Below are positions 38,222 to 52,847 of a stretch of 64,000 nucleotides of DNA, piece after piece. Every line of letters starts with the position of its first letter. The stretch's first letter is position 1. The position numbers and the translations under genes were made by a program. The stretch is from Bacteriovoracales bacterium (lineage in GTDB: Bacteria > Bdellovibrionota > Bacteriovoracia > Bacteriovoracales > Bacteriovoracaceae): positions 5,332 through 69,331 of the forward strand of contig JASBRV010000119.1 of the NCBI GenBank assembly GCA_030149295.1, read 5' to 3'. The notes under the pieces are model-generated. The model was not told the DNA's origin. It made no database searches and saw nothing but the letters and a program-made list of their open reading frames with translations.

Positions 38222-38251
38222 AAAAAAAGCCACCGTGTAGGTGGCTTTTTT
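38222..38251. terminator. bidirectional intrinsic terminator
   Basis: GCCACC (38229-38234) pairs with GGTGGC (38240-38245). It is flanked by an A7 run on one side and a T6 run on the other, and sits between convergent genes. Confidence 0.8.
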
Positions 38252-38272
38252 AACTTTAATTTTAGCGGTGTC

Positions 38273-38455
38273 TTACTGTACTGTACCCTCAGTCTTAACT
38301 TCTTTAACAACTTCACCTTCAGTAGCAGTTTCAACATTAGCATTACGACTTGATTGAATCATTTCAGCACAACCAGTCTCGTTTTCACCAACATCACCAG
38401 CAAATCCAGAAGTAACAGTTAGAACCATACATGCAATAAAAAGTAGTTTTTTCAT
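38273..38455 (-). CDS. secreted acidic mini-protein P1 (60 aa), paralog of P2
   Basis: Sec signal ending GFA|G. The mature part is GDVGENETGCAEMIQSSR followed by an E/K/T-rich tail. AGGAGAGAG RBS, its own sigma-54 promoter and its own terminator. Confidence 0.75.
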   Translation of the reverse strand: MKKLLFIACMVLTVTSGFAGDVGENETGCAEMIQSSRNANVETATEGEVVKEVKTEGTVQ

Positions 38456-38489
38456 AATCTCTCTCCTATTTTGTTATGCTTATATAGAA

Positions 38490-38504
38490 GCAAGGATAGT
38501 GCCA
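38490..38504 (-). promoter_or_regulatory. sigma-54 (-24/-12) promoter of P1
   Basis: The reverse strand reads TGGCAC-TATCC-TTGC, an exact match to the TGGCAC-N5-TTGC consensus, 35 nt upstream of the P1 ATG. Confidence 0.8.
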
Positions 38505-38609
38505 ATTTTTAGCTCCTATAAACAGGCACTTAGAAGTGTAAATCTGTGTAATTCCTATACTATGACCAAACTTTTTACGATTTAGAGAAAAAATATCACC
38601 TTTGAGAAC

Positions 38610-40022
38610 TTAGCCAAACCAAGAAAGAAGTCGGCGAATAAGGCTAATTTTCCCTTTATAAGGCGGGTAACGCACAGGAAGGTCTAAAAAGGTACCGCGA
38701 CCCATGATAGATTTCATATGGCTAAAGGTCTGGAAGCTCTTATATCCATGATAGGAGCCCATGCCACTAGCCCCCCTTCCTCCAAAGGGTAAATTAGGAT
38801 TAGTAAGATGAACAAGGGAATCATTGATACACATCCCTCCAGAGGGAACTTCCTCGATAAAACGTTCAATATAATGATTATCTTGGCTAAAAATATAGGC
38901 CGCTAGCGGGTTAGGATGCCTACGAACTGCTCCTAAAGCCTCATCAAAATTAGCTACCGAAATAATAGGTAAAATAGGGCCAAAAATTTCCTCCTTCATC
39001 GAAGGGGAATCAACGTTTGCCCTCAAGATTGTAGGGCTTAAATAATCCTTTTCCTCATCGACTTCGCCCCCGAAAATAAGATCATCACCCTTTTTATCAA
39101 AATAGCTTTCAAGCCGCTTGAGATGGCGTTTATTGATTATCTTTCCATAATCCGAAGAGTCTTTTGGGTTTTTACCAAAAAATTCCTCTATGTATTTTTT
39201 AAGGTTTTCCACAAACCTTGGATAAAGTTCTTCTTGAATTAACACATAGTCAGGGGCAACACAGGTTTGTCCGGCATTAAAAAACTTGCCCCAAGCAAGC
39301 CTCTTGGCCACAAGATCGAGGTCATTATTGCCCATAATAACACAAGGAGATTTCCCCCCTAATTCTAAAGTAACAGGGCAAAGGTTTTGAGCGGCTTTTT
39401 CCATGACGATTTTACCGACAACACCATTACCTGTATAAAAAATATGATCAAAAGGTAAAGAAAGCAAGGCCTGAGTCTCCTCTACAGCCCCTTCGACAAC
39501 TCCTACTACGCTTTCAGGAAAGTACTTAGGCACTAGCTCTGAAATGACCTTAGAAGTGGCCTCAGACACCTCTGAAGGCTTTAAAATAACGACATTCCCT
39601 GCAGCTAAAGCGCCAATGAGAGGGGACATTAAAAGCTGAAAAGGGTAATTCCAAGGACTAATGATAAGAATTTTCCCAAGGGGCTCAGGTCTTATTCTTG
39701 ACCATACCGGAAATTGCAAAAGGGGTGAGAACACCCAGCGCTTCTTCATGTATTTCTTTAGCTTCTTTAGTGTGTGGTCTATTTCTTTGATGGTAAAGAG
39801 AGTTTCACTGATGATTCCCTCAAATTGGCACTTACCCAAGTCCTTCTTAAGGGCCTCCAAGATCTGGTCCTCATTTTCTAAAATCAGCTTTCTGAGACTT
39901 AAGAGGTGGCCCCTTCTCTCCTGGTAGGTTCTATTTTCCCCTTCCAGAAAGGCTTTCTCCTGATGATTGAATAAAGATTGAATACGATTATCATTAGGGA
40001 CTGAATTCAAAGAAACCTCCAA
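38610..40022 (-). CDS. class-3-type aldehyde dehydrogenase (fatty/aromatic aldehyde)
   Basis: 470 aa. LELGGKSP glutamate motif and the NAGQTCVAPDY catalytic Cys region. No ATG start. The TTG at 40022 is one option; more likely is the TTG at 40010, which has GGAGG 5 nt upstream. Confidence 0.88.
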   Translation of the reverse strand: MEVSLNSVPNDNRIQSLFNHQEKAFLEGENRTYQERRGHLLSLRKLILENEDQILEALKKDLGKCQFEGIISETLFTIKEIDHTLKKLKKYMKKRWVFSPLLQFPVWSRIRPEPLGKILIISPWNYPFQLLMSPLIGALAAGNVVILKPSEVSEATSKVISELVPKYFPESVVGVVEGAVEETQALLSLPFDHIFYTGNGVVGKIVMEKAAQNLCPVTLELGGKSPCVIMGNNDLDLVAKRLAWGKFFNAGQTCVAPDYVLIQEELYPRFVENLKKYIEEFFGKNPKDSSDYGKIINKRHLKRLESYFDKKGDDLIFGGEVDEEKDYLSPTILRANVDSPSMKEEIFGPILPIISVANFDEALGAVRRHPNPLAAYIFSQDNHYIERFIEEVPSGGMCINDSLVHLTNPNLPFGGRGASGMGSYHGYKSFQTFSHMKSIMGRGTFLDLPVRYPPYKGKISLIRRLLSWFG

Positions 40023-40070
40023 TATTTCACTGGTTATTCTCTCTCAGCTTAATAAAATGGAAAAGGAAAA

Positions 40071-40097
40071 ATAAAAAGTCCCGCGTTTGCGGGACTT
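40071..40097 (-). terminator. intrinsic terminator of P2
   Basis: A 9-bp stem, AAGTCCCGC/GCGGGACTT, with a 4-nt loop. A U-rich tail follows on the minus-strand RNA. Confidence 0.75.
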
Positions 40098-40129
40098 ATT
40101 TATAACAAACAAAATAGGTCTTTTGATTT

Positions 40130-40318
40130 TTATTTAGCAGTAGCTGCTTCTTTCACTTCTTCTTTAGAATTTGAAGCATCAGTTGTGCCCAGATCCTCTT
40201 GAAAACGTGAGCTTTGTACACCACTTACACAGTCACCTTTCATGTCCTCGCCAACTTCTCCAGCGTAAGACATGTTAATCAATAAAACGGCCATAATAGC
40301 AAAAAATAAATTCTTCAT
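40130..40318 (-). CDS. secreted acidic mini-protein P2 (62 aa), paralog of P1
   Basis: Sec signal ending SYA|G. The mature part is GEVGEDMKGDCVSGVQSSR followed by an acidic tail. GGAGG RBS 8 nt upstream, with its own sigma-54 promoter and terminator. Confidence 0.75.
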   Translation of the reverse strand: MKNLFFAIMAVLLINMSYAGEVGEDMKGDCVSGVQSSRFQEDLGTTDASNSKEEVKEAATAK

Positions 40319-40369
40319 CTCTCATCCTCCGAAAACTTAGAGTTTCTTAATTAGTATGCTTTTATAGAA

Positions 40370-40384
40370 GCAAGAGATGTGCCA
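40370..40384 (-). promoter_or_regulatory. sigma-54 (-24/-12) promoter of P2
   Basis: The reverse strand reads TGGCAC-ATCTC-TTGC, an exact consensus match. The flanking TTGCTTCTATA(T/A)AAGCAT is also shared with the P1 promoter. Confidence 0.8.
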
Positions 40385-40458
40385 TAAATTTGATCTTTAA
40401 TTCAATAACTTAGAGATGTGAAAAATAAGAAAAAAATGATGGGTGTATAAAGTTTAAA

Positions 40459-40487
40459 CAAAAAAGCCGCACCCATTGGATGCGGCT
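40459..40487 (-). terminator. intrinsic terminator of P3
   Basis: A 7-bp stem, AGCCGCA/TGCGGCT, followed by a U6 run on the minus-strand RNA. Confidence 0.7.
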
Positions 40488-40518
40488 ATTTAATTCTAGG
40501 TTATATATTAATTAGAAA

Positions 40519-40743
40519 TTAGAGACCTATAACATTACCTTCATCGTCTACAGTCGCTCCTGGAGGTAGATTTAGAGTATCCTTGTCTCCAGTGCCCTGA
40601 ATGACACATTCTCCACAGGTAGAGTCACCACCACAGCCATTCTTTTCCCCGAGTGCCGCATCACCACCAGTGGTATCATCGGCCATAGAGGGCAAAGCTG
40701 TTGCAACCATCATCAACATAATCAAATATTTTAAACCTTTCAT
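40519..40743 (-). CDS. secreted Gly/Asp/Cys-rich mini-protein P3 (74 aa), positional analog of the Bdellovibrio hit-locus small protein
   Basis: Signal peptide ending SMA|DD. The mature part is TTGGDAALGEKNGCGGDSTCGECVIQG..., with 4 Cys. Lies directly downstream of the YD-repeat gene. Confidence 0.7.
   Translation of the reverse strand: MKGLKYLIMLMMVATALPSMADDTTGGDAALGEKNGCGGDSTCGECVIQGTGDKDTLNLPPGATVDDEGNVIGL
40625..40669 (-). repeat. 9-nt direct repeat pair, 36 nt apart, inside P3
   Basis: TGGTGGTGA on the coding strand occurs at 40661-40669 and 40625-40633. Each copy encodes GGD. The spacing is in frame (12 codons). Confidence 0.9.
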
Positions 40744-40870
40744 AAGCTACACCTGTTAGATTTGTTACCCTTATTATCCTACTAAAACTCTTAATTACCT
40801 AAAATCATGCTTCTTTTACGCTAAATACCTAATAAAAGGTTTTAAGCCGTGCCTTTAAAACTGGGCGCTT

Positions 40871-42496
40871 TTACATATTTAAATTAACACCTGCAGGCTT
40901 AACAATCGCTAGTAGGCTTTGGAAAGCTTGAGTCACTTGAAGGGCCATTTTATGACCTTGCTTTGACTCTACTTTCTTAATTTCGCCATAGTTATCGTAA
41001 GCTACATTAATCTTCCCTTCTCCTTCCATGTTGATCTCAACAGGCTTTCCAAGAGAGTTGTAAGTAAAGCTTAATTTTCTTGTTTTGTTAGTCTTAAGAT
41101 CTTTGTCGTACATCTTTGTGATACGGCCTTTAGTATCGTAGAAGAGAATAACAGATTTACCTTTGTCATTTGTCGCTTGAACAAGATTAGCACGCTTGTC
41201 GTACTTAAACTTCGTTGTACCTTTATTGTTAACAACCTTGGTAATTTTGTTAAACTTAGGGTGATACTCTAGTTCGACTGACTCTCCACGAGAAGAAGCT
41301 TTCTTTGTGAGAAGCCCTTTCTCGTTGTACTCAAAGGTTGTCGTGTTGTTTCCTCTAGCGATCTTAAGAGGAAGTGAGCAACATTCTGAGTAAACAGTCT
41401 CTGTTTTAATACCATTAATTTCCGTAGCAATCCTATAAGTATACTGTGATCCATCAGGACGAGTCTTAATTTCATACTCATACTTAGAAACAGATTTTTT
41501 CCCACTAGGAGATGTTTTTGTCACAGTTGTCCAGTAGTGAAACTCTGGATTCTTAGGATTAGACTCGTACTTATACTTTGTTGACTCACCATTTCTAGCA
41601 ACTACTTCTTCAACAAATTGAGTCTTTGGTGTGTATTTGATTTTGAGTTTTGATCCATCTGAGTAAACAACAGCTGTCATATTGTGATTACCGTCATACT
41701 CATACTTAAAGACATTTCCTGCAACGTCCTTAGACTCAATGAGGTTGTCGCCACGGTACTTATAAGCGGTTTTTTTATCACCTGAAGAGTAAATATGTTT
41801 AACTTTTCCGTCTGTGTACCACTCGAAGAAAAGTTGCTTCGCCTGGCTATCTTTAATAGATGCAAGCTGACCTTTCTTATAATTGAGGTTTACAACGTAG
41901 CCGTTCTTGGTTTTCATTTTAACGAGCTTACCGTCAGCATTAAAATACTCTTTTTTGCCGTCATTAAAGGCTCTCATAAAACCATCTTTCGTCTTTACGA
42001 TTTTTTGTAGTCCACGAACGTTTGAGAATAACTCTGTTCCAGCAGCGATTTTTGCTTGAACCTTAAACTTACGAGCATATGCTTGCCTGTATTCTGCGTC
42101 GTTTTTAAGTTTATCTAATAGAGTCTTTGCTGCTTTATCACTTAATGTCGATTTCTTACGAATTGCAGAGAGAATATCTTGTGCTGCCTTTTCTGCGTTT
42201 ACTGCTGTCTTAGGAGTAAATCTCGTTAAAGCACCTGATCCGTTTTCATGAACGACAACAGATCCGTCAGCAGAAACTGTGACGTAGGTTTCATAGTCAC
42301 TACCCCAACCAAAACCAAACCAACCCTTTTCCGTTGATTTTGAATTGTTGGTTCTCGTAATCTCAAGATCCATGCCTCCACCAGGAACAATGATATCTGT
42401 ATAGGAAATATAAAAATTCCCGTTTTTCAGATTCACCCCGGCCATCGCCATCGATGGGATCAAAAGTAAAAGTAACAACAGTTTCATAGCTCTCAT
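40871..42496 (-). CDS. secreted YD/RHS-repeat protein (short, no recognisable C-terminal toxin domain)
   Basis: 541 aa with a signal peptide. The N-terminal VNLKNGNFYISYTDI.VPGGG..L...R..NS....G.FG.GW pattern is typical of Rhs-family N-terminal domains. Multiple YxYD / Y.YD..G repeats follow (FKYEYDGNHNM, YKYRGDNL, FEYNEKGL, ...). Confidence 0.8.
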   Translation of the reverse strand: MRAMKLLLLLLLIPSMAMAGVNLKNGNFYISYTDIIVPGGGMDLEITRTNNSKSTEKGWFGFGWGSDYETYVTVSADGSVVVHENGSGALTRFTPKTAVNAEKAAQDILSAIRKKSTLSDKAAKTLLDKLKNDAEYRQAYARKFKVQAKIAAGTELFSNVRGLQKIVKTKDGFMRAFNDGKKEYFNADGKLVKMKTKNGYVVNLNYKKGQLASIKDSQAKQLFFEWYTDGKVKHIYSSGDKKTAYKYRGDNLIESKDVAGNVFKYEYDGNHNMTAVVYSDGSKLKIKYTPKTQFVEEVVARNGESTKYKYESNPKNPEFHYWTTVTKTSPSGKKSVSKYEYEIKTRPDGSQYTYRIATEINGIKTETVYSECCSLPLKIARGNNTTTFEYNEKGLLTKKASSRGESVELEYHPKFNKITKVVNNKGTTKFKYDKRANLVQATNDKGKSVILFYDTKGRITKMYDKDLKTNKTRKLSFTYNSLGKPVEINMEGEGKINVAYDNYGEIKKVESKQGHKMALQVTQAFQSLLAIVKPAGVNLNM

Positions 42497-42586
42497 GCAA
42501 TAGTCCTTTTTTTCATACAGACTTAATTATTTCTCTCTGTTTCTTTTCGACTTAAATTCCCAAAAGCTTTAGGAATTTCTAAAGCC

Positions 42587-43480
42587 CTAAGTCTTTATTT
42601 TTACTATCTTTAAGATGACCCAAAATCCTACGGCATCCAAAGTTATCGCCGCAATAGTCAACAAAATACCGATGGGATTCGTCACCATGAGTTTAATGGA
42701 GTTGGGATCACTGGCAGCGTAGATTCCAGCAATGGCAAAAGGCATACACGCAATAGTTACTCCTTGGAACATCCCTTGAGCTGTGTAGGTGTCAATTTTC
42801 TGTTGGAGGCGAACTCTTTCTCTGATAACTCCAACAATGGTATCAAATACCTCCGCAAGGTTACCGCCAGTTTCCCTTAGGATATTGATGGAAGAAACGA
42901 ACATTTCGTTATCTTCTGTTGGAACTCGTTTTACTAAATTTTCAAAACACTCTTCTAAAGTGACACCGATTCTATTTTGTTGAAGAATTAAACCAAATTC
43001 TTGAGATAGTGGTGGGTTCATCTCGTTAACCACCATCCCCAATGATTGAGGTACCGAAAGGCCAGCCCGAATGCCATTAGCAAGCAAGGTTAGACCGTCA
43101 ACCATTTGGCCTTGAAATTGCTTTATCCGCCTTTCAACTAAAAAGTCCACAATCTTTCGGGGAATGCGAAAGGAAAGCACTCCAACGATAATTCCAACAA
43201 TAAAGCCTAAAATCCAGTTTATCCACAAACCAAATAAAAGCATCGAGAAAGTAAATAATGAAAGAGAAAAAACGAGAAGGATCATTGTTAGCTTCTCTGG
43301 ATCAACTTCAATAAAAAGAAGCTCTAGCTTTTCAAGGATATAAGTTCTTGTACCAAGGGTCTGTGACTCAATCCAATCGAAAATATTCGTCGAATACCTA
43401 AGACAAAAGATAAAAACAAGCATCGCAATGACTGCGATAATTCCCTTTTGCCCTAGTATGGTGGTAATGACATAATCCAT
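42587..43480 (-). CDS. tadB: Tad pilus inner-membrane platform protein (TadB/TadC, T2SS-F family); only one copy present
   Basis: 297 aa. TM-cytoplasmic helical domain-TM architecture of the GspF/TadB family. Lies in the Tad operon. Confidence 0.8.
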   Translation of the reverse strand: MDYVITTILGQKGIIAVIAMLVFIFCLRYSTNIFDWIESQTLGTRTYILEKLELLFIEVDPEKLTMILLVFSLSLFTFSMLLFGLWINWILGFIVGIIVGVLSFRIPRKIVDFLVERRIKQFQGQMVDGLTLLANGIRAGLSVPQSLGMVVNEMNPPLSQEFGLILQQNRIGVTLEECFENLVKRVPTEDNEMFVSSINILRETGGNLAEVFDTIVGVIRERVRLQQKIDTYTAQGMFQGVTIACMPFAIAGIYAASDPNSIKLMVTNPIGILLTIAAITLDAVGFWVILKIVKIKT

Positions 43481-43489
43481 TTATATCAC

Positions 43490-45727
43490 CTAAGCCTTTT
43501 TCTTTTTGGGAGGCATACCGGCTGGGCGTTGCCCTTGCTGCGGCCTTTTTCCTTGTTGCGGAGGACCCTTTTGTCCCCCCTGTTCTTTTCCTTCCCCACC
43601 AGGAGCTGATGCTTTAGCTGGAGGTGTATTTTGAGAATTATTAAAAAGTCCTCTTGGAACGTTGTATCCCTTCTTTTCGAGTATCTCGATAAACTTTGGT
43701 ATAAACCCTGTTGCCTGAAATTCACCTTGAATCTTTCCAGTTTTATCAAAGCCTCTTTGTTGATAAACAAAGATATCTTGTAAGATTACAACATCCCCTT
43801 GCATGCCACCGAGCTCTGTGATGTAAGTCACTCGTCGTGAACCATCATCGAGACGCGACTGCTGAATAATCAAATGAACAGCATTGGATATCATTTCTCT
43901 AATGGCCTTAGGCTCAAGCCCAGCTCCTGCATACTGAACGAGAGTTTCGATACGTCCGATACATTCTCTGGGGTTGTTAGAGTGAACAGTAGTCATTGAA
44001 CCTTCGTGTCCAGTCCCCATGGCTTGAAGCATATCCAACGTTTCTCCACCACGGCACTCCCCCACCACAATACGGTCAGGACGCATTCTTAGAGTCTGTT
44101 TTACAAGACAGCGAATATCAATCTCACCATCACCCTCAAGTGATGGTGGCCTTGTTTCAAGACGAACAACATGATCTTGAGGAAGATCCAATTCGGCGGA
44201 GTCCTCACAAGTAATCACCCTTTCATTGGCCGGAATAAAACTTGCTAACACATTAATCAATGTTGTCTTACCAGAGCCTGTACCACCTGAAACAATGATA
44301 TTTTTATGGGCTTCAACAGCAATCCTTAAAAAGTCGGCCATATTCTCCGTCATTGAATCAAACTTAACGAGATCTTTGTATGTGAGTCTATTTTCTGGAA
44401 ACTTTCGAATCGTGATAGTACAGCCATCAAGAGCACATGGAGGAATAATGGCGTGAACCCTTGAGCCATCATGGAGACGAGCATCGACATAAGGAGTTTT
44501 TTCATCAATTCTTCGACCAATAGGTGCTACAATCCTCTCAATCACATTGAGAACTTGCCTATCATTCGTAAAGGAAATGGTAGAGCGCTTTATCTTCCCA
44601 CCATGTTCATAGTAAATTTTATCTGGCCCTATCACCATAATCTCAGAACATTCTTTATCAGCAAGTAAATCCTCTAAGGGACCAAGACCTAGGGCTTCAT
44701 CAAGGATTTCCTTAACGATTTGATTCATGTCTTCACGGCTATTAAGAATTCCCTTTGTATCCTCTTTGTTAAGAATATCAACAACAACCTTTTTTGTTTG
44801 CTCTCTAAGAATGACCTGCGCCTTTGGATCATCTTTATCATTTTTCTTAAGGTCCATTTCTTCATAGAGCTTTCGATGAATTCTTGACTTTAAGGTGGTC
44901 CACCCATCATTCTTTGACGCCTCTGATCCCGAATCCGATGATTTCTTTTGAACATCTTTTGGCTTATTAAGTCGAGCGAGTGTCTTGAGAACATTTTTTT
45001 GAATAAGCTTTCTAACTGTCTCAGTCACCCCTCTTGCAAAAGCAGAATTTTTATTAATAACCATGATAGGCTTTTTCTGATTAAGGGCACTGACACAAGT
45101 TTGATCATCTTTTGGAATCGTAGAAAAAACAGGCTTACCGATTGTTTTTCCCATTACCTCTGGTGTTACAGGGTGGCCTTTTTGTATCTGATTACCAATA
45201 ATCAAAATCATATCTTTAGGAAAAAGCATGGTGACGAGTTCAGTATAAAGACGCCTGGTTTGATTGAGCGCAAGAATATCAGGCGTCACCACCAGAAAAA
45301 TAGCCGTGCTATATTCTAATGCCTTAAGCGCCAAGGGGTTTAACTCAGAGCCAGCATCAATGATTGTAGTTGAACAGAGATTGGGAGCTGCCTTTAAAAA
45401 AGCCCCTAACCCTTCACTATTTACAGAAGCTGATGCAGTAGGGTCATCTGGCATACCAATATACTGAACACCTGAAGGATGAGCAGAGACAAAGGGTAAT
45501 ATCGATCGGGGATCAAAAGAGCCATTAAATTCAGCCAGCTCTCTCACTGTTTTTTTTGGTTTTATACCAGTAATAAAGTTTTGATCGCCAGAGGCTTGCT
45601 GATCAAAATCAAGAAGCATTACCTTTTGTCGCGTCTCTGCAGCAAAAGCAAAAGCGAGATTAGCCGCGACCTGAGATTTACCAACCCCTCCTTTTCCGCC
45701 AATAATTGTTATTATGCTTCCTGCCAT
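43490..45727 (-). CDS. cpaF: fused CpaE/TadZ-like ParA-type ATPase domain and CpaF/TadA secretion ATPase, with a low-complexity P/Q/G/K tail
   Basis: 745 aa. The N-terminus has the deviant Walker A GGKGGVGKS (MinD/ParA/CpaE type). The C-terminal part has GGTGSGKTT Walker A and a VirB11/CpaF hexameric ATPase pattern. The last ~50 aa are PPAKASAPGGEGKEQGGQKGPPQQGKRPQQGQRPAGMPPKKKKA. Confidence 0.85.
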   Translation of the reverse strand: MAGSIITIIGGKGGVGKSQVAANLAFAFAAETRQKVMLLDFDQQASGDQNFITGIKPKKTVRELAEFNGSFDPRSILPFVSAHPSGVQYIGMPDDPTASASVNSEGLGAFLKAAPNLCSTTIIDAGSELNPLALKALEYSTAIFLVVTPDILALNQTRRLYTELVTMLFPKDMILIIGNQIQKGHPVTPEVMGKTIGKPVFSTIPKDDQTCVSALNQKKPIMVINKNSAFARGVTETVRKLIQKNVLKTLARLNKPKDVQKKSSDSGSEASKNDGWTTLKSRIHRKLYEEMDLKKNDKDDPKAQVILREQTKKVVVDILNKEDTKGILNSREDMNQIVKEILDEALGLGPLEDLLADKECSEIMVIGPDKIYYEHGGKIKRSTISFTNDRQVLNVIERIVAPIGRRIDEKTPYVDARLHDGSRVHAIIPPCALDGCTITIRKFPENRLTYKDLVKFDSMTENMADFLRIAVEAHKNIIVSGGTGSGKTTLINVLASFIPANERVITCEDSAELDLPQDHVVRLETRPPSLEGDGEIDIRCLVKQTLRMRPDRIVVGECRGGETLDMLQAMGTGHEGSMTTVHSNNPRECIGRIETLVQYAGAGLEPKAIREMISNAVHLIIQQSRLDDGSRRVTYITELGGMQGDVVILQDIFVYQQRGFDKTGKIQGEFQATGFIPKFIEILEKKGYNVPRGLFNNSQNTPPAKASAPGGEGKEQGGQKGPPQQGKRPQQGQRPAGMPPKKKKA

Positions 45728-47203
45728 TTAACGGCGCCTCCGCCTAAATTTCTTTTTGATATCTTCAGTTCCTGCACTTGCTGACTCAACAATCTCGGGT
45801 GTCACAAAAACAACAAACTGGCTTTTTGAATTTGAAAAAGCTTTCGATCGAATAAAGTTAAAAAGAGGACTAGAGCCTTCAATTTCATCTGGTGGAATTT
45901 TATCGTAGTCCGTACTCGACTTATTGACGACAATACCACCAATCACCGCGGATTCTTTAGACTTTACAATGACTTCTGTGGTGACATTATTTGACTGAGT
46001 TGAAGGAGGACTGGTCCCAATATTGGTTGAAATAGTAACATTAAGTTCCATATTGATACGCTCTTCTTGAAGAACTTCAGGCTTTACTTTAACGTTAAAA
46101 GTCGCCGTTGCTTCTTGAGCTTGAGCGAACTCACCAGAGCCAAGGGAAAACCTTCGCGTGTCGGTTTTATTGATCGAGCCATTCTTTTTATCTTTAACAA
46201 GGACAACTCCCGATTGAACGACTCGTGCATACCCAGCTTGCCTGGCGGCATTAAGCTTAGGAAAAAGATTTGAAATGGTGCCACTCAAAGTTCCATCCGA
46301 TCTTGTGGTCACCCCACCATCTTGTGTTCGACCAACACTAATGGTTCCCGAGCCGTTAGAAACGAGAGGTGTCCACTTAAAACCAAAGGTTTTTGAATAA
46401 TCTTTTGTTAACTCAACAAATTGCGCCGTTATTTTTATGAGTTTTTCTAATGGAGGTGGCTCACTTTTCGCATTTACTTGAATAAAGTTTTGAATCGCCG
46501 GTTTTTGAGCCTGGACGATTTGCTGCGTTCTTTCCGCCAAAGAAGCAATTCTGTCTGGATAAAAAGCTTTTGCGATATCTTCAGCCCTTCTCTTTTTTCC
46601 TTCAGAATTAACAATACCTTCCAACCAATAAGTATGATTCACAACCCTAACCGTAACATTGGGAAGTTGATTTTTCTGAATCTCCTCCTGCATCTTTCTC
46701 GCAACAAGCCTTTCCGTCTGAGGAGAAAGTTCAACGAGAAAGAGAACTTCTCCAAACTTTTCTTGATTTAAAACCTTAACAACACGGCCAATTTCTTGGG
46801 GCACAATAATTTCACCACCAACATATATCGTCTCGCCTTTGATACCTATTTCTAGGCCTTCAACATCGCCAATAAAGTCTTTTAATTCTTTAACGAGTCG
46901 AGACTGATCATTTGCCGTAATAGTAATCAAATACTTTGCCTTCACATCTCCAACATTATTACGAAGAGTCACAGATGTTTTTCCTGGCTTAAGCCCTGTA
47001 AATGTAATTTCTCTTTTTTGAGGAATCATCGTAATTCTTAAAAGGGACTCATCACCAATTTGAACTTGAGGATTGGGTGCGAAGTTAAGTTTTTCAATTT
47101 TATCTATACCAAGAATAACCTCGACAGGCTTTTCTTGTACCCCTTGTGAAAAGACCGAAAGCGAAATGATGAAAAAGAGAAAGGGGGTCAGTTTACTTAT
47201 CAA
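45728..47203 (-). CDS. cpaC: Tad pilus outer-membrane secretin CpaC/RcpA
   Basis: 491 aa with a signal peptide. N-terminal pilus-formation domain and a C-terminal secretin domain (…VVFVTPEIV…). Confidence 0.85.
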   Translation of the reverse strand: MISKLTPFLFFIISLSVFSQGVQEKPVEVILGIDKIEKLNFAPNPQVQIGDESLLRITMIPQKREITFTGLKPGKTSVTLRNNVGDVKAKYLITITANDQSRLVKELKDFIGDVEGLEIGIKGETIYVGGEIIVPQEIGRVVKVLNQEKFGEVLFLVELSPQTERLVARKMQEEIQKNQLPNVTVRVVNHTYWLEGIVNSEGKKRRAEDIAKAFYPDRIASLAERTQQIVQAQKPAIQNFIQVNAKSEPPPLEKLIKITAQFVELTKDYSKTFGFKWTPLVSNGSGTISVGRTQDGGVTTRSDGTLSGTISNLFPKLNAARQAGYARVVQSGVVLVKDKKNGSINKTDTRRFSLGSGEFAQAQEATATFNVKVKPEVLQEERINMELNVTISTNIGTSPPSTQSNNVTTEVIVKSKESAVIGGIVVNKSSTDYDKIPPDEIEGSSPLFNFIRSKAFSNSKSQFVVFVTPEIVESASAGTEDIKKKFRRRRR

Positions 47204-47205
47204 GA

Positions 47206-48024
47206 CTAGCGTCCTCCCCTAATTTTCTTTTGCTCTTCAAAGAATTGTTTTGCTTCAGCACGTCCATCTTCTCCGATAACATCAAAAATATCCGTCGACT
47301 TTATCCGAACAATTTTCTTGTCATTGTTATTTCTCAGAGAAAGCCAAGGCTTTGCACCTGTCCAATAAGTAAGAAAAACCAGCTTTTGAGCCTCGTAAGG
47401 AGTAAGCTCTAAAGTAACCGTGTCATAACGATCATAAACCTGTGCTTTCATCGTTCGAATTTCTTTAGGAGTTTTCACCCCGTAAATAGGAATCGCGTTG
47501 GTCATACTCTTTCCCGTCGAAAGGACAAGAACGTCTTGCAAGATGGTACTGGTCTTTTGCATATCTTTTTGACCATTAGAAATGTCTAAGGGCGCCAAAA
47601 TATCAACACGGTCACCTGGTTTAATAAGCTTCGATACCGCCTGCCTTTCGGAGATCTGAATGGCAATGGCCCTTTTACCTATACTCACCTGTCTCGATAA
47701 GCCAGTCTCAGCACCAGGATAGGTTACCCTTGGTTTTGTTATTTGTTCACCGGCCATAATAGGAACAGTTGCCATGGTATTTTCTAGAGCTTTAATTTTA
47801 TTGAAACTTCCAGGTGAGGCGAATGCTTTCGGAACGTTCTTAGCAATCAACATCGTATCATCTAAGAGCTCTAATTCTTTAATATCTCTTTTCGCAACAA
47901 CAACGGAAACTTCGTCACCGTATTTTCGAATGTAATTCGCTTCTTGATCTTCCAGATAGGTGTAGACCATAAAAACGGCAATACCAGCTATAACCAACGC
48001 CAGGGTAAAGGCCCGAGTGTTCAC
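47206..48024 (-). CDS. cpaB: Flp pilus assembly protein CpaB/RcpC (SAF domain)
   Basis: 272 aa with an N-terminal TM helix. SAF-like VVVAKRDI..... segment. Positioned between the pseudopilins and the secretin. Confidence 0.8.
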   Translation of the reverse strand: MNTRAFTLALVIAGIAVFMVYTYLEDQEANYIRKYGDEVSVVVAKRDIKELELLDDTMLIAKNVPKAFASPGSFNKIKALENTMATVPIMAGEQITKPRVTYPGAETGLSRQVSIGKRAIAIQISERQAVSKLIKPGDRVDILAPLDISNGQKDMQKTSTILQDVLVLSTGKSMTNAIPIYGVKTPKEIRTMKAQVYDRYDTVTLELTPYEAQKLVFLTYWTGAKPWLSLRNNNDKKIVRIKSTDIFDVIGEDGRAEAKQFFEEQKKIRGGR

Positions 48025-48109
48025 GCAGTGACTCCTGTTCAGATTCTCGTCAAAGCTAATTTTAACAAAGGGTTATGCTGTGAATCGAAGAAGGGAAAGA
48101 AAATCCCCT

Positions 48110-48640
48110 CTATTCACCGTCAGATATAGCACAAACGTTATTCTGATTATTTGGGTCAGGTTGTCCCTCCCCACCAGCATTGGGAATTATCCATCTTTGG
48201 CCCGCTCTTGTATAAAAAGCTCCGCAAATACCATAGGCCGTATAAACTCTGACATAAGAGGTCTGTCTTTCACCGCTATTAGGCTCTTCACAGTCCTCCT
48301 GATCTGAATCAGAAAAGAGTGAGTTAAAGCGAAAACAAGGAGCAACAGGGGACGTTCCCCCCTCCAATTTATCTGCGTAACCAATCATACTTGCCCCCAC
48401 TCGCATTACACCCGAGGTATAAGTATCAAGTTCAAATTGAGATGGAATATAACTGTTTCCTTTCGTCAGAAAGTAATAATAACGTCTAGTTACCTTTTGT
48501 TGATTAATAGAAACATTAATTGAATTTCCAACATTGAATATTAAAGTATAGAGAAAGATCAAAATAGGCATGAACACAAGGAGCTCAAATATCGCTTGAC
48601 CCTCTTCCCGTTTTTTTCTTTTTTTAACATCCATTATCAA
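48110..48640 (-). CDS. TadE/TadG-like pseudopilin
   Basis: 176 aa. N-terminal EEG|QAIFELLVFMPIL prepilin-like segment (G-x4-E-F/Y). Confidence 0.7.
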   Translation of the reverse strand: MIMDVKKRKKREEGQAIFELLVFMPILIFLYTLIFNVGNSINVSINQQKVTRRYYYFLTKGNSYIPSQFELDTYTSGVMRVGASMIGYADKLEGGTSPVAPCFRFNSLFSDSDQEDCEEPNSGERQTSYVRVYTAYGICGAFYTRAGQRWIIPNAGGEGQPDPNNQNNVCAISDGE

Positions 48641-49148
48641 ATACCGTCGAATGCCTTACACAACCAGCTCCACCAACATCTTCTAAAGAAGCACAAATTT
48701 GATAAAAGCATTCTGCCCTCGTCGGCTCCATTCCCAAGTAAGATTCGGAAACCATCGGAATCTCAATTTTTGCATTAGATCCAGGTATCGCTATATTTTC
48801 GGTGAACTCAACCCTTGGACCGATATAAAGATTTCTCGCCCGTGTTTGTCTACTCGCAGGCTCTTCAAACTCAATCGTATTAGGAAAGTTTGGCATGAGT
48901 ACATCGAGTTTATAACTATTAAAAACATCCGTAGCCTGCTTTCTCGCTTCAGAGTCTGATCCATCAGGAGTATTAGAGTTTCTTTCACCTACCATGTAAG
49001 CCCTTGATGCTTGAAAAGTAGCATAATGAATTAAGTAGCCATTGGTGTAAACGACGGCAAGCCTCAAAAAGGCAAAAATAAACCCCAAAGCAATAGCAAA
49101 GCTAAAGAGAAATTCTATCGTTGATTGTCCATCTTCGTTTTTTATCAA
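48624..49148 (-). CDS. TadE-like pseudopilin
   Basis: 174 aa. N-terminal NEDG|QSTIEFLFSFAIAL segment. Confidence 0.75.
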   Translation of the reverse strand: MIKNEDGQSTIEFLFSFAIALGFIFAFLRLAVVYTNGYLIHYATFQASRAYMVGERNSNTPDGSDSEARKQATDVFNSYKLDVLMPNFPNTIEFEEPASRQTRARNLYIGPRVEFTENIAIPGSNAKIEIPMVSESYLGMEPTRAECFYQICASLEDVGGAGCVRHSTVFDNGC

Positions 49149-49160
49149 TTCTATGCCTTA

Positions 49161-49487
49161 TTAATTGTCTGGATAGTTCGACTGATCTGTGAAACCAAAA
49201 AACCGTGAAGTTGATCCATCTGGTTGTGCAAAAGAAGGATGATCATCTGGTGGAACAGAAGGAACATTATTACCAATATCTACTTTAGTGGCATATCGAT
49301 AACTCATAGAGACTCTCTCTGCCACAGTTTGAAAAAATGCAGAATCTTCACCAAAAAATTGTTGAAAGGTATCCGAGCGAAATACGGAAAAGAAAAGAGA
49401 TGTTACTACGGCTAGTAAAAGAATATATTCGACAGTCGACTGCCCGACCTCATTTTTTATTTTACTAAATCTCTTATCATATCCCAT
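49161..49487 (-). CDS. TadE-like pseudopilin (small)
   Basis: About 108 aa, starting from the internal ATG at 49487. N-terminal NEVG|QSTVEYILLLAVV segment. Confidence 0.7.
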   Translation of the reverse strand: MGYDKRFSKIKNEVGQSTVEYILLLAVVTSLFFSVFRSDTFQQFFGEDSAFFQTVAERVSMSYRYATKVDIGNNVPSVPPDDHPSFAQPDGSTSRFFGFTDQSNYPDN

Positions 49488-49969
49488 GAAAAAGCCACCC
49501 AAGAAATTGCGATCACCGGAGCATAAGCAAATTTAGTACCGTAAACACTCTTTATACCCGGAACATTCATAACCCTAACCGCAGCTAACAGTTTATCAAA
49601 GTTTTTAGCCGTGTTGTAGATTAAGAGGTACAAACCTATAGCAATAGTTGAGTAAATCAGTTTAAGAAAAAAGAGTTCATGAAAACTTTCTGGTACTAAC
49701 AAAAAGAAAGAAAAAAGAAACTTTGAATCCCCCCCCCCCATTATTTTAAGAGTGAAAAGGATGAAACCAACTCCAAGAAAGACCAAAGGATAAAAGAAAG
49801 TTGAAAAGGTAAAAGAATAGAGAGTAGGGAAAACAAAGAGACAGGCTAAAAATAAAACTATATTGAGAAGTGACCAATAGTTAGAAATCTTTCGATACTT
49901 AATGTCTATATAGGAAGCAATGGCTAGCTCTGCTCCTAAAAAAAGCAATAAAACGAGCGGGAACTTCAA
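49457..49969 (-). CDS. tadV: prepilin peptidase TadV/CpaA (A24 aspartyl peptidase)
   Basis: 170 aa polytopic protein. First Asp in SYIDIKYRKI and second Asp in the MGGGDSKF motif. Confidence 0.85.
   Translation of the reverse strand: MKFPLVLLLFLGAELAIASYIDIKYRKISNYWSLLNIVLFLACLFVFPTLYSFTFSTFFYPLVFLGVGFILFTLKIMGGGDSKFLFSFFLLVPESFHELFFLKLIYSTIAIGLYLLIYNTAKNFDKLLAAVRVMNVPGIKSVYGTKFAYAPVIAISWVAFSWDMIRDLVK
49729..49739 (-). repeat. G11 homopolymer (C11 on the + strand) inside tadV
   Basis: The coding strand reads ATG GGG GGG GGG GAT, encoding M-G-G-G-D of the catalytic motif. This is the longest G/C run I found in the window. Confidence 0.9.
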
Positions 49970-50184
49970 TTAAATATCCCATTTTGATAACTTCTAAAAA
50001 AACATTCTGATTCACAAACACCAGTCGTTAGCTCTTGAGTGAGGACAAAACCCAAACTTTTGACAGAGTCTTTTATACCCCCTCCGATAGTTTGCGCTAG
50101 GCCAACACCAATAAGAGACATAAAAGCAAATATCAAAATATACTCAATGGTCGCTTGACCTCGTGAGTTTGTAAGATTTTTCAT
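49966..50184 (-). CDS. flp: Flp-family type IVb pilin (second copy, two C-terminal Cys)
   Basis: 72 aa. Processing motif SRG|QATIEYILIFAF. Confidence 0.8.
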   Translation of the reverse strand: MKNLTNSRGQATIEYILIFAFMSLIGVGLAQTIGGGIKDSVKSLGFVLTQELTTGVCESECFFRSYQNGIFN

Positions 50185-50310
50185 GAATGTAGGATATCAA
50201 AAAATGAGACGCGTTTAAACGCAGGAAGATAAATCTCCGATAAATTTGAAGAAATCTGAGTTGAAAGGAATTAAAAAGAAGAGAACCCAAAAATAGAGAG
50301 AACTCTTCCT

Positions 50311-50502
50311 TTAATTTCCGTTAAGCTCGTTAGTCCAGGAATCGGCACCATCAAAGACTTTGTCCGTTAAATCACCAAGTCTCTGCGTTGCCTTCTCCTT
50401 AAACTTGAAAACGATCAATGCCACAACCGCAACCAATAGAATATATTCGGTTGAAGTTTGCCCGTCCTCATCCTTTAAGAAAGCAATAATTTGGTTTTTC
50501 AT
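50311..50502 (-). CDS. flp: Flp-family type IVb pilin
   Basis: 63 aa. Processing motif DEDG|QTSTEYILLVAVVAL. Confidence 0.85.
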   Translation of the reverse strand: MKNQIIAFLKDEDGQTSTEYILLVAVVALIVFKFKEKATQRLGDLTDKVFDGADSWTNELNGN

Positions 50503-50595
50503 ACTCTGCTCCTAAAATTCCTCTGTAACAAGTTATCGGATTAACTAGCCTATAACTTGAGCTTTTTTCCCTCCTAGAAAGTGCTTTACTCTACT

Positions 50596-50623
50596 ATTAT
50601 AGGCCATAACTGCTGCATCGCAA
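50596..50623 (-). promoter_or_regulatory. candidate sigma-70 promoter of the flp/tad operon
   Basis: Reverse strand: TTGCGA, 16-nt spacer, TATAAT. Lies about 95 nt upstream of the flp ATG. Confidence 0.4.
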
Positions 50624-50952
50624 AATAAATAGCTTTTTATATTAATTTCGATGAGTTATCTAGGTTATGGTAGTTTATTTCTATTGAATAACGCGTTATT
50701 TTCAGGCATATTAGTAAGTGGGCTTTGTGGTTGGCATACAGTATTTCGCCCTACAAAAACTACCAAGGAAGCGGTCCCTGGCCATGGTGAGCAAGCTCAC
50801 AAAGCTTTTGAGCTGAAAGTGAGAAGCCTAAAATGGTTACTAACTGCGTCCACCTGTCAAATGATGGGCGGAAACTTGAAGCCAGCAAAGCCCACCCTTT
50901 TTCTTTTCCCCGTAAAATTGACATCTTGCCCCCTTAAAATCATCATTAACAT

Positions 50953-51495
50953 ATGGAGAATCTTACAAATAGCCCTAGCCTTGGGTCTGAGAATTGGGCA
51001 ACCTGGATTGAAAACTTAGCTATTGAAGAAGTTAATATGGCAGAATCAGGGGTCATAGATATTCATGAGCATCTCAATCCTATCCATTTTTTAGAGGAAT
51101 CATCCATTGAGTTTATGAATGATATGAGAGATCTCGTTGAAAGATTCATTGCACGCTTTAATGAATATCGCGGTCACCAATCAAGCCAACATATTAAGAT
51201 TTTCAAAATTTCTAATACTGTTAACGATTTCATGTTATTTCGTAATTCTTTGAGACTCATTTTTGCTCGTAAAGCTAATGACCTTATAAGTATTGCCTTT
51301 ATTACTAATGGTAAGGACCTCCTAGCTCCAAGACTTCAAGCTCATGACTCTTTCGGAATGGAAGGTGTTCATGAAATAAGAGCCCACCTTGGCCCATTTA
51401 ATAAAATTACTTGGCGCTTTCAAGGGGAGATTATCGATAAAGAAGCGATGGTGAAACACTACCTTACAGAATTTATTAAGCAATCAGCTCAGTAA
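50953..51495 (+). CDS. hypothetical cytoplasmic protein
   Basis: 180 aa ORF. ATG 51037 is an alternative start. No family recognised and the RBS is poor for both starts. Confidence 0.5.
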   Translation: MENLTNSPSLGSENWATWIENLAIEEVNMAESGVIDIHEHLNPIHFLEESSIEFMNDMRDLVERFIARFNEYRGHQSSQHIKIFKISNTVNDFMLFRNSLRLIFARKANDLISIAFITNGKDLLAPRLQAHDSFGMEGVHEIRAHLGPFNKITWRFQGEIIDKEAMVKHYLTEFIKQSAQ

Positions 51496-51504
51496 TGAGA
51501 AGGC

Positions 51505-52539
51505 TTAAATAAACTTCACACCTTCGCTACCTTTTCCTACACCTTTTTTAGTCAAAATTCCGCCTAAGCGTTGGTAGGTAAACTGAAGAGACTCTTTGAT
51601 TGAAGGCAAATTTACATTGAGAAAGCCTTCGATATTGGAAGTATCCAGCTTAAAATACATCTGTTCTCCAACCTGTGAAGTCGTAGCAGACTTGCTATAG
51701 GGGAAAGACCACCTTCCCTTTGAGAAGCGGTCTTTGGCAACATCAAAAACCTCTGAATAATGAAGGCAAAAGTCATAAAGACTTCCAATATCACTACTTG
51801 AAACCTGAAAAAGCCTATTCGTAACACCAGAATCAAAACTCATCTTAATGAGCATCCCAAGATAGAAAATATCCAAAAACCCCGTGTGAATAAAAGCGTC
51901 CATCTGGGCGGCCTTATTATTAGCGAGGGCTCTTTGCAGGTTCTCAAACCAAGTGGGCCGAGTCGGATTAATGGCTCGACCATAAAGTCGGCAACATCTG
52001 AAGATTAAATAATTAAGAGATGTCTTTTGAAGATAAAACTCTGCTGCTGCTTGAGTTTTTCCATAGGTGGTTATCCCGTCAGGAATATCCATTTCAAAGT
52101 AATTCTTCTTCTCACCTGAAAAAATAAAACCTGAACTTATATAGACGATCTGGGACTTATACCTCTGGCAATATTCTGCGACGTTAAAAAGTCCAGAAGA
52201 GTTAAGAGCATCAGCCCTCTCCTCGTTCTCATGACAATCGACAATGGAGGATACACCTGCGCAATAAATGACAAAGTCGGGCTTAAAGGCGAAAAGAATC
52301 AACTGCACCTCTTCTTTTGCCAGTACATCACAAGGGATCGTCAAAACGCCATTAATGCGAACTGAGTTTTTATGATAAGTGCCAATAACTTTATAATCTT
52401 TTTTGAAAAACTCCGCGAGGTTTGATCCAATAAAAGAAGAAATCCCAAAAATGACAATTGTCTTTTTGGTATTCTCCCTTAACTCCTCAAGAAGTTTTTC
52501 TTTTGCGAGTTCTTTATCTTTTTTCGACCTTTTCGTCAT
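51505..52539 (-). CDS. NAD-dependent epimerase/dehydratase-family (RmlD-like) protein with a K/E-rich N-terminal extension
   Basis: 344 aa. IFGISSFIGSNL Rossmann motif, YGKTQ resembling YxxxK, and an extended-SDR pattern. Lies next to the flagellin genes, so it may be a flagellin glycosylation enzyme. Confidence 0.7.
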   Translation of the reverse strand: MTKRSKKDKELAKEKLLEELRENTKKTIVIFGISSFIGSNLAEFFKKDYKVIGTYHKNSVRINGVLTIPCDVLAKEEVQLILFAFKPDFVIYCAGVSSIVDCHENEERADALNSSGLFNVAEYCQRYKSQIVYISSGFIFSGEKKNYFEMDIPDGITTYGKTQAAAEFYLQKTSLNYLIFRCCRLYGRAINPTRPTWFENLQRALANNKAAQMDAFIHTGFLDIFYLGMLIKMSFDSGVTNRLFQVSSSDIGSLYDFCLHYSEVFDVAKDRFSKGRWSFPYSKSATTSQVGEQMYFKLDTSNIEGFLNVNLPSIKESLQFTYQRLGGILTKKGVGKGSEGVKFI

Positions 52540-52792
52540 ACCTCATTTTAACAGGTGCGTGATACTTTTTAAGACGGGGTGCAAAAAAGTCTCTTCCAAA
52601 AGGTGCCAAGTTGTTTTTGGGGGGTGGTGGTTATTTGCTTGAAATTCTTCCTTCGAGCGCTTCACTCAAACCGCCGGAATACCCTACGGGCATTTGTCGG
52701 TTTATCGTTTCGCTTTTGGGGTTTGCTGTGATTCATAGTTGGGTATCCAGCTTCGGCTCCTGCCTTCGCCTGGATACATTCATCCTGAATGC

Positions 52793-52829: not shown

Positions 52830-52847
52830 ATAAAAAGAAAGTAAATT

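Follow-up and report, generated by a model that had tools for sequence, protein, structure and literature searches.

What decides whether a Bdellovibrio-like predator stays in attack phase or turns to growth has been an open question ever since the discovery of the hit locus in 1992. A row of pilus genes in an uncultured relative raises this question for another branch of the phylum: is it a counterpart of the hit locus, and if so, how far does the likeness extend? The row lies in a 64,000-nt stretch of DNA that we analyzed as a whole (the window; G+C about 40%), positions 5,332-69,331 of contig JASBRV010000119.1 from GCA_030149295.1, a metagenome-assembled genome (MAG) of a Bacteriovoracales bacterium (Bdellovibrionota; Bacteriovoracaceae). 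An initial annotation had listed two flp genes, tadV, three tadE-like genes, cpaB, cpaC, cpaE-F and tadB/C, followed by a YD-repeat protein and a tiny secreted peptide (here P3), and had taken the whole for the counterpart of the hit locus. We read the genes from the open reading frame (ORF) list of window positions 38000-53000, with families assigned through Pfam and NCBIfam, and all of them lie where that annotation had put them, in an unbroken minus-strand row from 50502 down to 40519; the tadE-like label corresponds to an N-terminal motif only. We consider it probable that the hit/Tad locus of Bdellovibrio-like predators is seen here in its Bacteriovoracia (Halobacteriovorax/Bacteriovorax-type) form, and that it works in the way that we propose below.

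A Bd0109-type YD protein at the end of the operon

The last large gene of the row ties it to the hit locus.

40871..42496, minus strand: secreted protein of 541 aa with DUF6531 and YD/RHS repeats (Pfam and NCBIfam; BLASTP against Bd0109)

In BLASTP, residues 6-539 of this YD protein align with residues 5-548 of Bd0109 at 33% identity (E 1e-98), a homology that runs from end to end, and the secretin, CpaE-F and TadB genes upstream are collinear orthologs of those in B. bacteriovorus, which bears out the proposed kinship with the hit locus. Our B. bacteriovorus reference is locus L034 of strain YOA24, used as a proxy for HD100, which was absent among the retrieved loci. Both published Bd0109 cloning primers match L034 exactly, and its 101-aa protein shares a 90% cluster with HD100 CAE77782.1 (NCBI name "hit locus") and carries N32, D36, C56 and C59, as described for Bd0108. 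The gene order in L034 is secretin, a 739-aa CpaE-F fusion, TadB, the 550-aa Bd0109 and the 101-aa Bd0108.

Close full-length homologs of the YD protein number in the hundreds (60-100% identical, 540-545 aa), and the named ones belong to Bdellovibrionota, Bacteriovoracaceae, Halobacteriovorax and Bacteriovorax, the closest being those of Halobacteriovorax marinus (70%), Bacteriovorax sp. BSW11_IV and BAL6_X. Contigs with homologs of 94%, 90%, 84% and 70% identity have one common layout that matches the window: an epimerase, a divergent gene of 175-180 aa, flp, tadV, prepilin-like genes, cpaB, secretin, CpaE-F, TadB and YD, and then two small genes in succession, an aldehyde dehydrogenase, one more small gene and a divergent CheY-like regulator. 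Our comparison within Bacteriovoracia covered the relatives L001-L005 and 80 metagenomic loci, in which the window architecture recurs; 58 loci extend at least 900 nt downstream, and the downstream counts given below refer to these. The Bdellovibrionales scan, with one genome per species, used the back-translated N-terminus of mature Bd0109, LVDMKNANYS (from a cloning primer of Capeness 2013), and returned 111 loci, nearly all from Bdellovibrionales. The synteny that had been proposed on the basis of one window is thus found from Bdellovibrionales to Bacteriovoracia.

RHS repeats together with DUF6531 are typical of Rhs/WapA toxins, and small ORFs behind such a gene occupy the usual place of immunity genes. 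The locus could accordingly be imagined as a degenerate Rhs polymorphic-toxin cassette, an Rhs shell with immunity-like small genes that lies at the end of a Tad operon by chance, but this reading is very improbable and close to refuted. The YD protein has neither the DPxG[LWM] core-tip motif (PxxxxDPxGL aspartyl protease) nor a match to the Rhs-associated-core family in NCBIfam, and we found no C-terminal toxin domain, the chain ending in a single helix about 30 residues past the last repeat; the absence of core tip and toxin had been noted at the outset and holds. Across hundreds of cluster representatives the protein stays at about 540-570 aa and is conserved from end to end (an exhaustive search gave 861 clusters at E<1e-30, and among the best matches listed, alignments run end to end and lengths are mostly 520-590 aa). 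Its ratio of nonsynonymous to synonymous substitution rates (dN/dS), 0.02-0.04, gives no sign of decay. The downstream ORFs encode signal peptides, which cytoplasmic immunity proteins lack, and deletion of bd0109 was not achievable in B. bacteriovorus (PMC3818213). The YD family is a stable one, not a decaying Rhs gene.

An AlphaFold2 model of the YD protein, with a predicted local distance difference test (pLDDT) score of 89.9, has an N-terminal beta domain at residues 18-94 (DUF6531), three helices at 101-143, about 28 strands of YD hairpins at 155-511 and a C-terminal helix at 515-535. The repeat region, residues ~155-511, matches only Rhs cores, teneurins and Tc-toxin BC shells (profiles with E down to 7.5e-48, Foldseek with E down to 6e-22), at template modeling scores of only 0.2-0.36 against PDB matches that all have at least 1000 residues. 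The model suggests a truncated Rhs-like sheet of about 360 repeat residues, too short for a closed cocoon, and such a sheet would fit a binding or scaffolding role, not toxin delivery. Residues 371-376 of the window protein, E-C-C-S-L-P, are invariant in all ten aligned Bacteriovoracia YD proteins, and Bd0109 has EVFGKP; that these cysteines pair with a peptide cysteine is speculative.

P3 in the position of Bd0108

A small gene and its terminator follow the YD gene, as bd0108 follows bd0109.

40519..40743, minus strand: P3, a secreted acidic peptide of 74 aa with three Cys (CGGDSTCGEC), an AGGTG ribosome-binding site and a Sec-type signal peptide ending in ..PSMA/DD
40465..40487, minus strand: strong intrinsic terminator 3' of P3 (10-bp stem with 7 GC pairs, T-run)

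Mature P3 consists of 77% disorder-promoting residues and has a net charge of -9, and its single-sequence AlphaFold2 prediction (pLDDT 53) contains no secondary structure outside the signal peptide. Since its orthologs occupy the same place in relatives and its dN/dS is about 0.19 (against 0.02-0.04 for YD), P3 is a real gene and a fast-evolving one: it is only 58-59% identical to the orthologs in the relatives with 94% and 90% identical YD proteins. In 53 of the 58 Bacteriovoracia loci, a small ORF with a signal peptide lies within 200 nt past the YD stop codon.

How P3 relates to Bd0108 can be approached through the whole sets of first peptides, which comprise 63 Bdellovibrionales loci (ORF start 0-80 nt past the YD stop) and 70 unique Bacteriovoracia sequences. 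Common to both sets are position, signal peptide, a short G-E motif after the cleavage site, at least one Cys and a low-complexity tail. We equate P3 with Bd0108 because of position, signal peptide, size, composition and Cys motif, and it is best described as a positional analog whose homology is unproven. Hidden Markov models (HMMs) of the Bdellovibrio peptide families, run against all window ORFs, placed P1, P3 and P2 (the former and the latter introduced below) at the top with E 0.015-0.1; these matches are probably driven by signal peptides and were not used as evidence of homology.

In Bdellovibrionales, a signal-peptide ORF of 86-136 aa lies immediately behind the Bd0109 homolog in 63 of about 75 usable loci (L006-L116). 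A comparative study that relied on homology searches reported Bd0108 as "absent" from many Pseudobdellovibrionaceae (PMC11870529); there, a Bd0108-type gene probably exists that has diverged beyond the reach of such searches.

The spacer between YD and P3 (window 40744-40870, minus strand) measures 100-140 nt in the window's clade, which here includes L001-L003, L005 and L118-L136. Two elements of it are conserved: right behind the YD stop codon, a short hairpin or palindrome of the form GCCA-N7-TGGC, and a GAGATAATA box about 30 nt before the P3 start, which may be a -10 element of P3's own. The spacer between YD and the first peptide is only 9-30 nt in more distant Bacteriovoracia and in Bdellovibrio.

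Two further peptide genes with sigma-54-type promoters

The initial annotation ended the locus at P3 and so missed two more peptide genes with their promoters, which lie just beyond it.

40369..40384, minus strand: sigma-54-type promoter TGGCAC-N5-TTGCT upstream of P2 (strict motif match)
40130..40318, minus strand: P2, a secreted acidic one-Cys peptide of 62 aa (signal peptide; dN/dS)
40076-40097, minus strand: terminator 3' of P2 (sequence scan)
38489..38504, minus strand: sigma-54-type promoter TGGCAC-N5-TTGCT upstream of P1 (strict motif match)
38273..38455, minus strand: P1, a secreted acidic one-Cys peptide of 60 aa, paralog of P2 (signal peptide; dN/dS)
38223-38251, minus strand: hairpin terminator 3' of P1 (sequence scan)

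The strict motif TGGCAC-N5-TTGCT occurs just twice in the 64 kb of the window, where 0.03 matches would be expected, and the two copies stand immediately upstream of P2 and P1, starting 48-66 nt before their ATG codons; the motif is kept upstream of the equivalent genes in L001-L005. The two peptides have the same build, with a signal peptide, a GE motif, one Cys and an acidic tail, and C-x-E-x-I-Q-S-S-R-type motifs are common to P2 and P1 and, loosely, to P3. At least one small signal-peptide ORF with an upstream sigma-54 motif occurs in 49 of the 58 Bacteriovoracia loci, and 62 of 65 unique peptides preceded by the motif have exactly one Cys in the mature part. Peptide dN/dS lies at 0.1-0.8, as opposed to 0.02-0.04 for YD, and peptides of the P3, P2 and P1 types are under purifying selection. 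An rpoN gene appears in the lists for B. marinus and for Bdellovibrio (PMC3526173).

Upstream of the sigma-54 promoters we found a palindrome with the half-site TGTCT(A/C)A in 20 of 67 cases from Bacteriovoracia and 9 of 29 from Bdellovibrionales, against an expectation of about 0.02 (0.017 for the 20 of 67), an enrichment of about 17-fold over background. The Bacteriovoracia form, TGTCTAAA-N-TTTAGACA, lies some 57-88 nt upstream of the -24 element (L118, L120, L124, L126, L130 and others), and the Bdellovibrio form, GTCTCA-N4-TGAGAC, lies about 24 nt upstream of it (L007, L018, L020, L034, L063, L081). In the window, copies resembling TGTCTAAA..TTTAGACA are degenerate, the one upstream of P2 being at ~40440-40460. 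The palindrome may be a binding site for an enhancer-binding protein that is common to the phylum.

An aldehyde dehydrogenase gene (38610-40022, minus strand) separates P2 from P1. L001-L003, L005 and many metagenomic loci, all of the window's clade, keep this insertion; it is missing in more distant loci, where the peptide genes are adjacent. Beyond P1, divergent genes begin at 37851-38192 (plus strand) with a 113-aa protein that has an N-terminal hydrophobic segment, followed by a CheY-like single-domain response regulator of 131 aa; the pair is kept in L001-L003, in L005 and in the more distant L004, and it is possible that it is linked to the locus.

The second peptide gene of Bdellovibrio and the published small RNA

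The scanned Bdellovibrionales loci contain a gene of this kind as well: 39 of them have a second small ORF with a signal peptide, 54-117 aa long, about 500 nt past the Bd0109 stop codon and just behind bd0108. The motif GGCA[CT]-N7-GC[AT] is found 47-74 nt upstream of its ATG in 29 of the 39 loci, against a background of 0.006 per 150 nt, and its dN/dS of 0.11-0.45 is like that of Bd0108 (0.08-0.27), which argues for a coding gene. In L034 it is a 66-aa ORF (7312-7512) behind the bd0108 terminator and the promoter TGGCAC-ACGCG-ATGCA. Small secreted-peptide genes, promoter motifs and terminators of this kind are conserved across the phylum. Several B. bacteriovorus genomes list the second ORF as "hypothetical protein" or "lipoprotein", and it matches no Rfam family.

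A small RNA (sRNA) has been reported downstream of bd0108, and its transcript rises in host-independent bd0108 mutants (Capeness 2013, PMC3818213). Both of the reverse-transcription PCR primers that define this "sRNA between bd0103 and bd0108" fall inside the 66-aa ORF of L034, one as an exact match and the other with 3 mismatches to YOA24. In the likeliest reading, what was published as an sRNA is the mRNA for a conserved, secreted peptide expressed from a sigma-54-type promoter; a dual function of the second ORF, as RNA and as peptide, is possible. If the sRNA is an mRNA, then in H. marinus BMS_0183 would be the counterpart of Bd0108 and BMS_0184 that of the second ORF, in place of a lineage-specific duplication of hit. 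We found no paper in the searchable literature that links sigma-54 or RpoN with bd0108. The published accounts of the H. marinus hit region (Crossman 2013; Prehna 2014; Avidan 2017) contain neither the sigma-54 promoters, nor a third peptide copy, nor a Bdellovibrio counterpart of the second gene. Relative to the searchable papers, then, P2 and P1 with their sigma-54-type promoters and their own terminators, the spread of such genes and the coincidence with the sRNA appear to be new.

The peptide genes also bear on whether the YD protein and its small neighbors work together at all. The YD protein could be a Tad-associated adhesin or a secreted factor that binds prey walls or carbohydrates, with the peptides as independent signaling or bacteriocin-like neighbors: YD/RHS repeats are tied to carbohydrate binding in literature cited by Capeness 2013, P2 and P1 form separate transcription units given their own promoters and terminators, an aldehyde dehydrogenase gene stands between them, and contact between peptide and YD protein is known only outside this lineage. 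We nevertheless think this unlikely, as YD and peptide genes stay neighbors in two classes of the phylum although the peptides diverge very fast. In B. bacteriovorus, moreover, binding between the first peptide and the YD protein has been seen in vitro (PMC3818213, PMC4267844), and the transcript of the second gene goes up when the first gene is mutated (PMC3818213).

The Tad pilus machine

The remainder of the operon encodes the components of a Tad pilus, listed here in the direction of transcription.

50596..50623, minus strand: TTGCGA-16-TATAAT, the best match to a sigma-70-like promoter, some 94 nt 5' of flp1 (10 of 12 consensus positions; consensus match only)
50311..50502, minus strand: Flp prepilin 1, 63 aa, DEDG/QTSTEY (Flp1_like and Flp_Fap below the curated cut-off; processing motif)
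49966..50184, minus strand: Flp prepilin 2, 72 aa, NSRG/QATIEY (Flp1_like/Flp_Fap below the curated cut-off; processing motif)
49457..49969, minus strand: TadV prepilin peptidase (Peptidase_A24 PF01478, 34.2 bits against a cut-off of 26.5)
49161-49502, minus strand: prepilin-like (TadE/F-type minor pilin) gene (N-terminal motif only)
48624-49148, minus strand: prepilin-like (TadE/F-type minor pilin) gene (N-terminal motif only)
48110-48640, minus strand: prepilin-like (TadE/F-type minor pilin) gene (N-terminal motif only)
47206..48024, minus strand: CpaB/RcpC (TIGR03177, 151 bits)
45728..47203, minus strand: secretin, CpaC/RcpA (Pfam; 34% identical to the B. bacteriovorus homolog)
43490..45727, minus strand: CpaE/TadZ (ParA-like) fused to the CpaF/TadA ATPase, 745 aa (ParA/CbiA at aa 4-217, T2SSE at aa 346-623)
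42587..43480, minus strand: TadB/C platform protein, single (T2SSF; 38% identical to the Bdellovibrio homolog)

The promoter match upstream of flp1 is the putative operon promoter. Both Flp prepilins have a clear G/QxxxEY processing site and a hydrophobic helix. The three prepilin-like genes match no Pfam or NCBIfam family, and their N-termini, read from the sequence, have the form G-Q-S-T-[VI]-E-[YF] or G-Q-A-I-F-E-L (in general G-Q-[SA]-x-x-E-[YFL]), with a hydrophobic helix behind it; their positions are kept in L001-L005. In place of a TadB plus TadC pair, the window has one T2SSF gene, and because B. bacteriovorus L034 also has just one, the single gene is a lineage trait and not a defect. 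The fusion of CpaE/TadZ to CpaF/TadA (about 740 aa) together with a single TadB/C is common to the window (43490-45727, minus strand) and to L034 (2020-4239), and this combination may be the signature of a predatory subclass of Tad systems.

Tad loci are widespread as colonization islands, this MAG is known from sequence alone, and for H. marinus SJ a Bd0108-type switch has been doubted (Prehna 2014). One could therefore take the locus for that of an ordinary Tad pilus, used in adhesion or biofilms, whose accessory genes are specific to the lineage and which has no part in predation or in a growth switch in this organism. The gene set makes this quite unlikely: the CpaE-F fusion, the single TadB/C, the Bd0109-type YD protein and the small secreted peptides were recovered essentially only from Bdellovibrionota, the 111 loci of the motif scan are nearly all from Bdellovibrionales, and the named homologs all belong to this phylum. 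The flp genes, furthermore, are required for predation in B. bacteriovorus (PMC5430801).

Next to flp1, in divergent orientation, lies a 6S RNA (SsrS) gene (50717-50897, plus strand; Rfam RF00013, 61.5 bits), which has the same neighbor in L001, L002, L003 and L005; the ORFs 50651-51019 (plus strand) and 50760-50924 (minus strand) overlap it and are probably spurious. Weak HMM matches at window positions 13230-13472 and 56858-57037 were inspected and are unrelated.

A proposed way of working, and what weighs against it

If the hit/Tad reading of the locus is correct, the operon would build a Tad (type IVb, "Kil-like") pilus machine with two Flp pilins that TadV processes, a set of three minor-pilin-like proteins, CpaB, the secretin, the fused CpaE-CpaF as motor and a single platform protein. 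Its last large gene would supply a Bd0109-type YD protein that is exported to the cell envelope, a truncated Rhs-like sheet with neither protease tip nor toxin. The adjacent genes would provide fast-evolving, disordered, secreted Cys peptides in two regulatory classes, the first represented by P3 directly behind YD, like Bd0108, and the second by P2 and P1, each with a sigma-54-type promoter and terminator of its own and presumably dependent on sigma-54 in vivo. In B. bacteriovorus, Bd0108 binds Bd0109 in vitro and tunes both pilus extrusion and the switch from attack to growth (PMC3818213, PMC4267844). By analogy with that species, the peptides would bind the YD protein weakly and so set the extrusion and retraction of the pilus at the prey-contact pole, and the state of the pilus would feed into the decision to start growth, which would give the locus its part in a lifestyle switch.

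The two peptide classes and the sRNA can be joined in a broader reading, in which the hit locus across Bdellovibrionota would be a conserved three-part envelope module made up of a truncated Rhs-like YD protein, an operon-linked peptide (Bd0108/P3) and at least one sigma-54/enhancer-controlled one-Cys peptide (P2/P1). The "sRNA" would be the mRNA of the second class, and the two classes would serve as alternative ligands of the YD protein that gate the Tad pilus and the attack-to-growth switch. The measured 3:1 stoichiometry of Bd0108 to Bd0109 leaves room for several peptides on one YD protein. We offer this broader reading tentatively and regard it as rather doubtful in its full form.

Several points count against the hit/Tad reading, beginning with the peptide itself. 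In its comparison with the hit locus, the initial annotation had likened P3 to the small secreted Bd0108: the position, the signal peptide, the disorder-prone composition and a CxEC motif bear this out, but no homology can be demonstrated beside the end-to-end homology of the YD proteins. The sole match between P3 and Bd0108 is a 10-mer, CGECVIQGTG / CRECIAYRTG (pairwise E 0.044). With signal peptides removed, the peptide families of the two taxonomic classes gave a nonsignificant hhalign P of 0.06 over 6 columns, reversed controls being only slightly worse; in hhalign comparisons of all pairs, no two mature-peptide families were significantly similar, and a word-indexed homology search with P3 returned P3 alone. 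We rejected CxEC as proof of homology: it is limited to the window, L001, L002, L117, L118 and a few others (6 of 70 unique Bacteriovoracia first peptides, with CxxC in 23 of 70), and the H. marinus-type P3 ortholog has a single Cys (NCES..QGKG). The sigma-54 circuit is incomplete within the window, since no enhancer-binding protein (GAFTGA-type activator) is encoded there. Predation and host-independent growth of the source organism are assumed from taxonomy alone, and for H. marinus SJ it has been argued that host-independent growth probably arises by another route (Prehna 2014, PMC4267844). Finally, all functional steps are transferred from a single species, B. bacteriovorus HD100, in which the role of Bd0109 is itself still hypothetical.

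What the locus adds

Kinship with the hit locus has already been published for H. marinus SJ, and the locus as first stated is one more genome in a known synteny; the novelty implied by the initial annotation was overstated, given that the synteny of Bacteriovorax/Halobacteriovorax with the hit locus, including the small downstream genes and TadV, was on record (PMC3526173, PMC4267844, PMC5430801). More deserving of attention are the conserved peptide gene and its sigma-54-type promoter, together with the new reading of the sRNA. The small gene of the hit locus evolves so fast that homology searches call it absent in many relatives. The architecture, on the other hand, is conserved from Bdellovibrio to Bacteriovoracia, including the second peptide gene with a sigma-54-type promoter, and so allows the module to be defined by position. 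It also supplies testable candidates, BMS_0183/0184 in H. marinus and the 66-aa ORF in B. bacteriovorus.

Comparison with known systems

With canonical Tad/Cpa loci (Aggregatibacter tad, Caulobacter cpa) the window shares Flp prepilins with a G/xxxxEY site, an A24 peptidase, CpaB/RcpC, secretin, TadZ/CpaE, TadA/CpaF, a T2SSF protein and putative pseudopilins. It differs from them in that CpaE and CpaF are fused and one T2SSF gene stands in place of TadB and TadC, and TadD- or TadG-type genes were not recognized in the window. The YD protein has the YD beta-sheet region of Rhs/YD toxins and Tc-toxin BC shells (PDB 8qjb, 7q97, 4igl) and the N-terminal DUF6531 of many Rhs proteins. Unlike those shells, it has about 360 repeat residues instead of at least 1000, its model does not superpose as a closed cocoon, and it is found without an aspartyl-protease core tip, a toxin or a T6SS/PAAR/VgrG context.

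The Kil system of Myxococcus xanthus is also a Tad machine at the prey contact site, and the Tad locus of Bdellovibrionales has been assigned to the same predatory subclass (PMC12075869). Minor-pilin "Tip" complexes are predicted for the Bdellovibrionales Tad (PMC12075869), and in the window the equivalent place is taken by three minor-pilin-like genes. In the parts of that account available to us, no YD protein or small secreted peptides are described for Kil (PMC12075869); we liken the two by description.

The B. bacteriovorus hit locus (bd0108-bd0119) agrees with the window in the order secretin, CpaE-F fusion, TadB, YD protein and small secreted peptide. In BLASTP against L034, CpaE-F is 46% identical to the 739-aa protein over both domains, and TadB (38%) and secretin (34%) are likewise full-length, collinear homologs; the YD proteins are of one length class, with DUF6531, YD repeats and no toxin, and in each locus another small secreted-peptide gene follows, behind a sigma-54-type promoter. 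The window differs in having TadV, which is reported missing in Bdellovibrio and present in Halobacteriovorax/Bacteriovorax (Avidan 2017, PMC5430801), and in having two full-length Flp genes. P3 (74 aa, net charge -9, 127 nt from YD) contrasts with Bd0108 (101 aa, near neutral, 10-16 nt from bd0109), to which its homology is not demonstrable, and the sigma-54 peptide gene of the window is duplicated, with the aldehyde dehydrogenase between the copies. Among all examined Bdellovibrio and like organisms, bd0109-bd0113 synteny is conserved; in the same study, flp genes were found to be needed for predation (Avidan 2017, PMC5430801).

The nearest described relative is the hit region of H. marinus SJ, BMS0170-0184. 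Its synteny with B. bacteriovorus was described under the name B. marinus SJ, with BMS0183/0184 taken as a tandem duplication of hit (Crossman 2013, PMC3526173); BMS_0182 was later given as a Bd0109 homolog of 35% identity, and BMS_0183/4 as lacking significant similarity to Bd0108 (Prehna 2014, PMC4267844). The H. marinus-type P3 ortholog has one Cys, whereas P3 of the window has three with CxEC. Like the window, however, H. marinus has a Tad operon with TadV, a Bd0109 homolog and two small signal-peptide genes behind it, and the H. marinus-like contig L005 (YD 70% identical) shares the layout of the window down to the aldehyde dehydrogenase and the third peptide gene.

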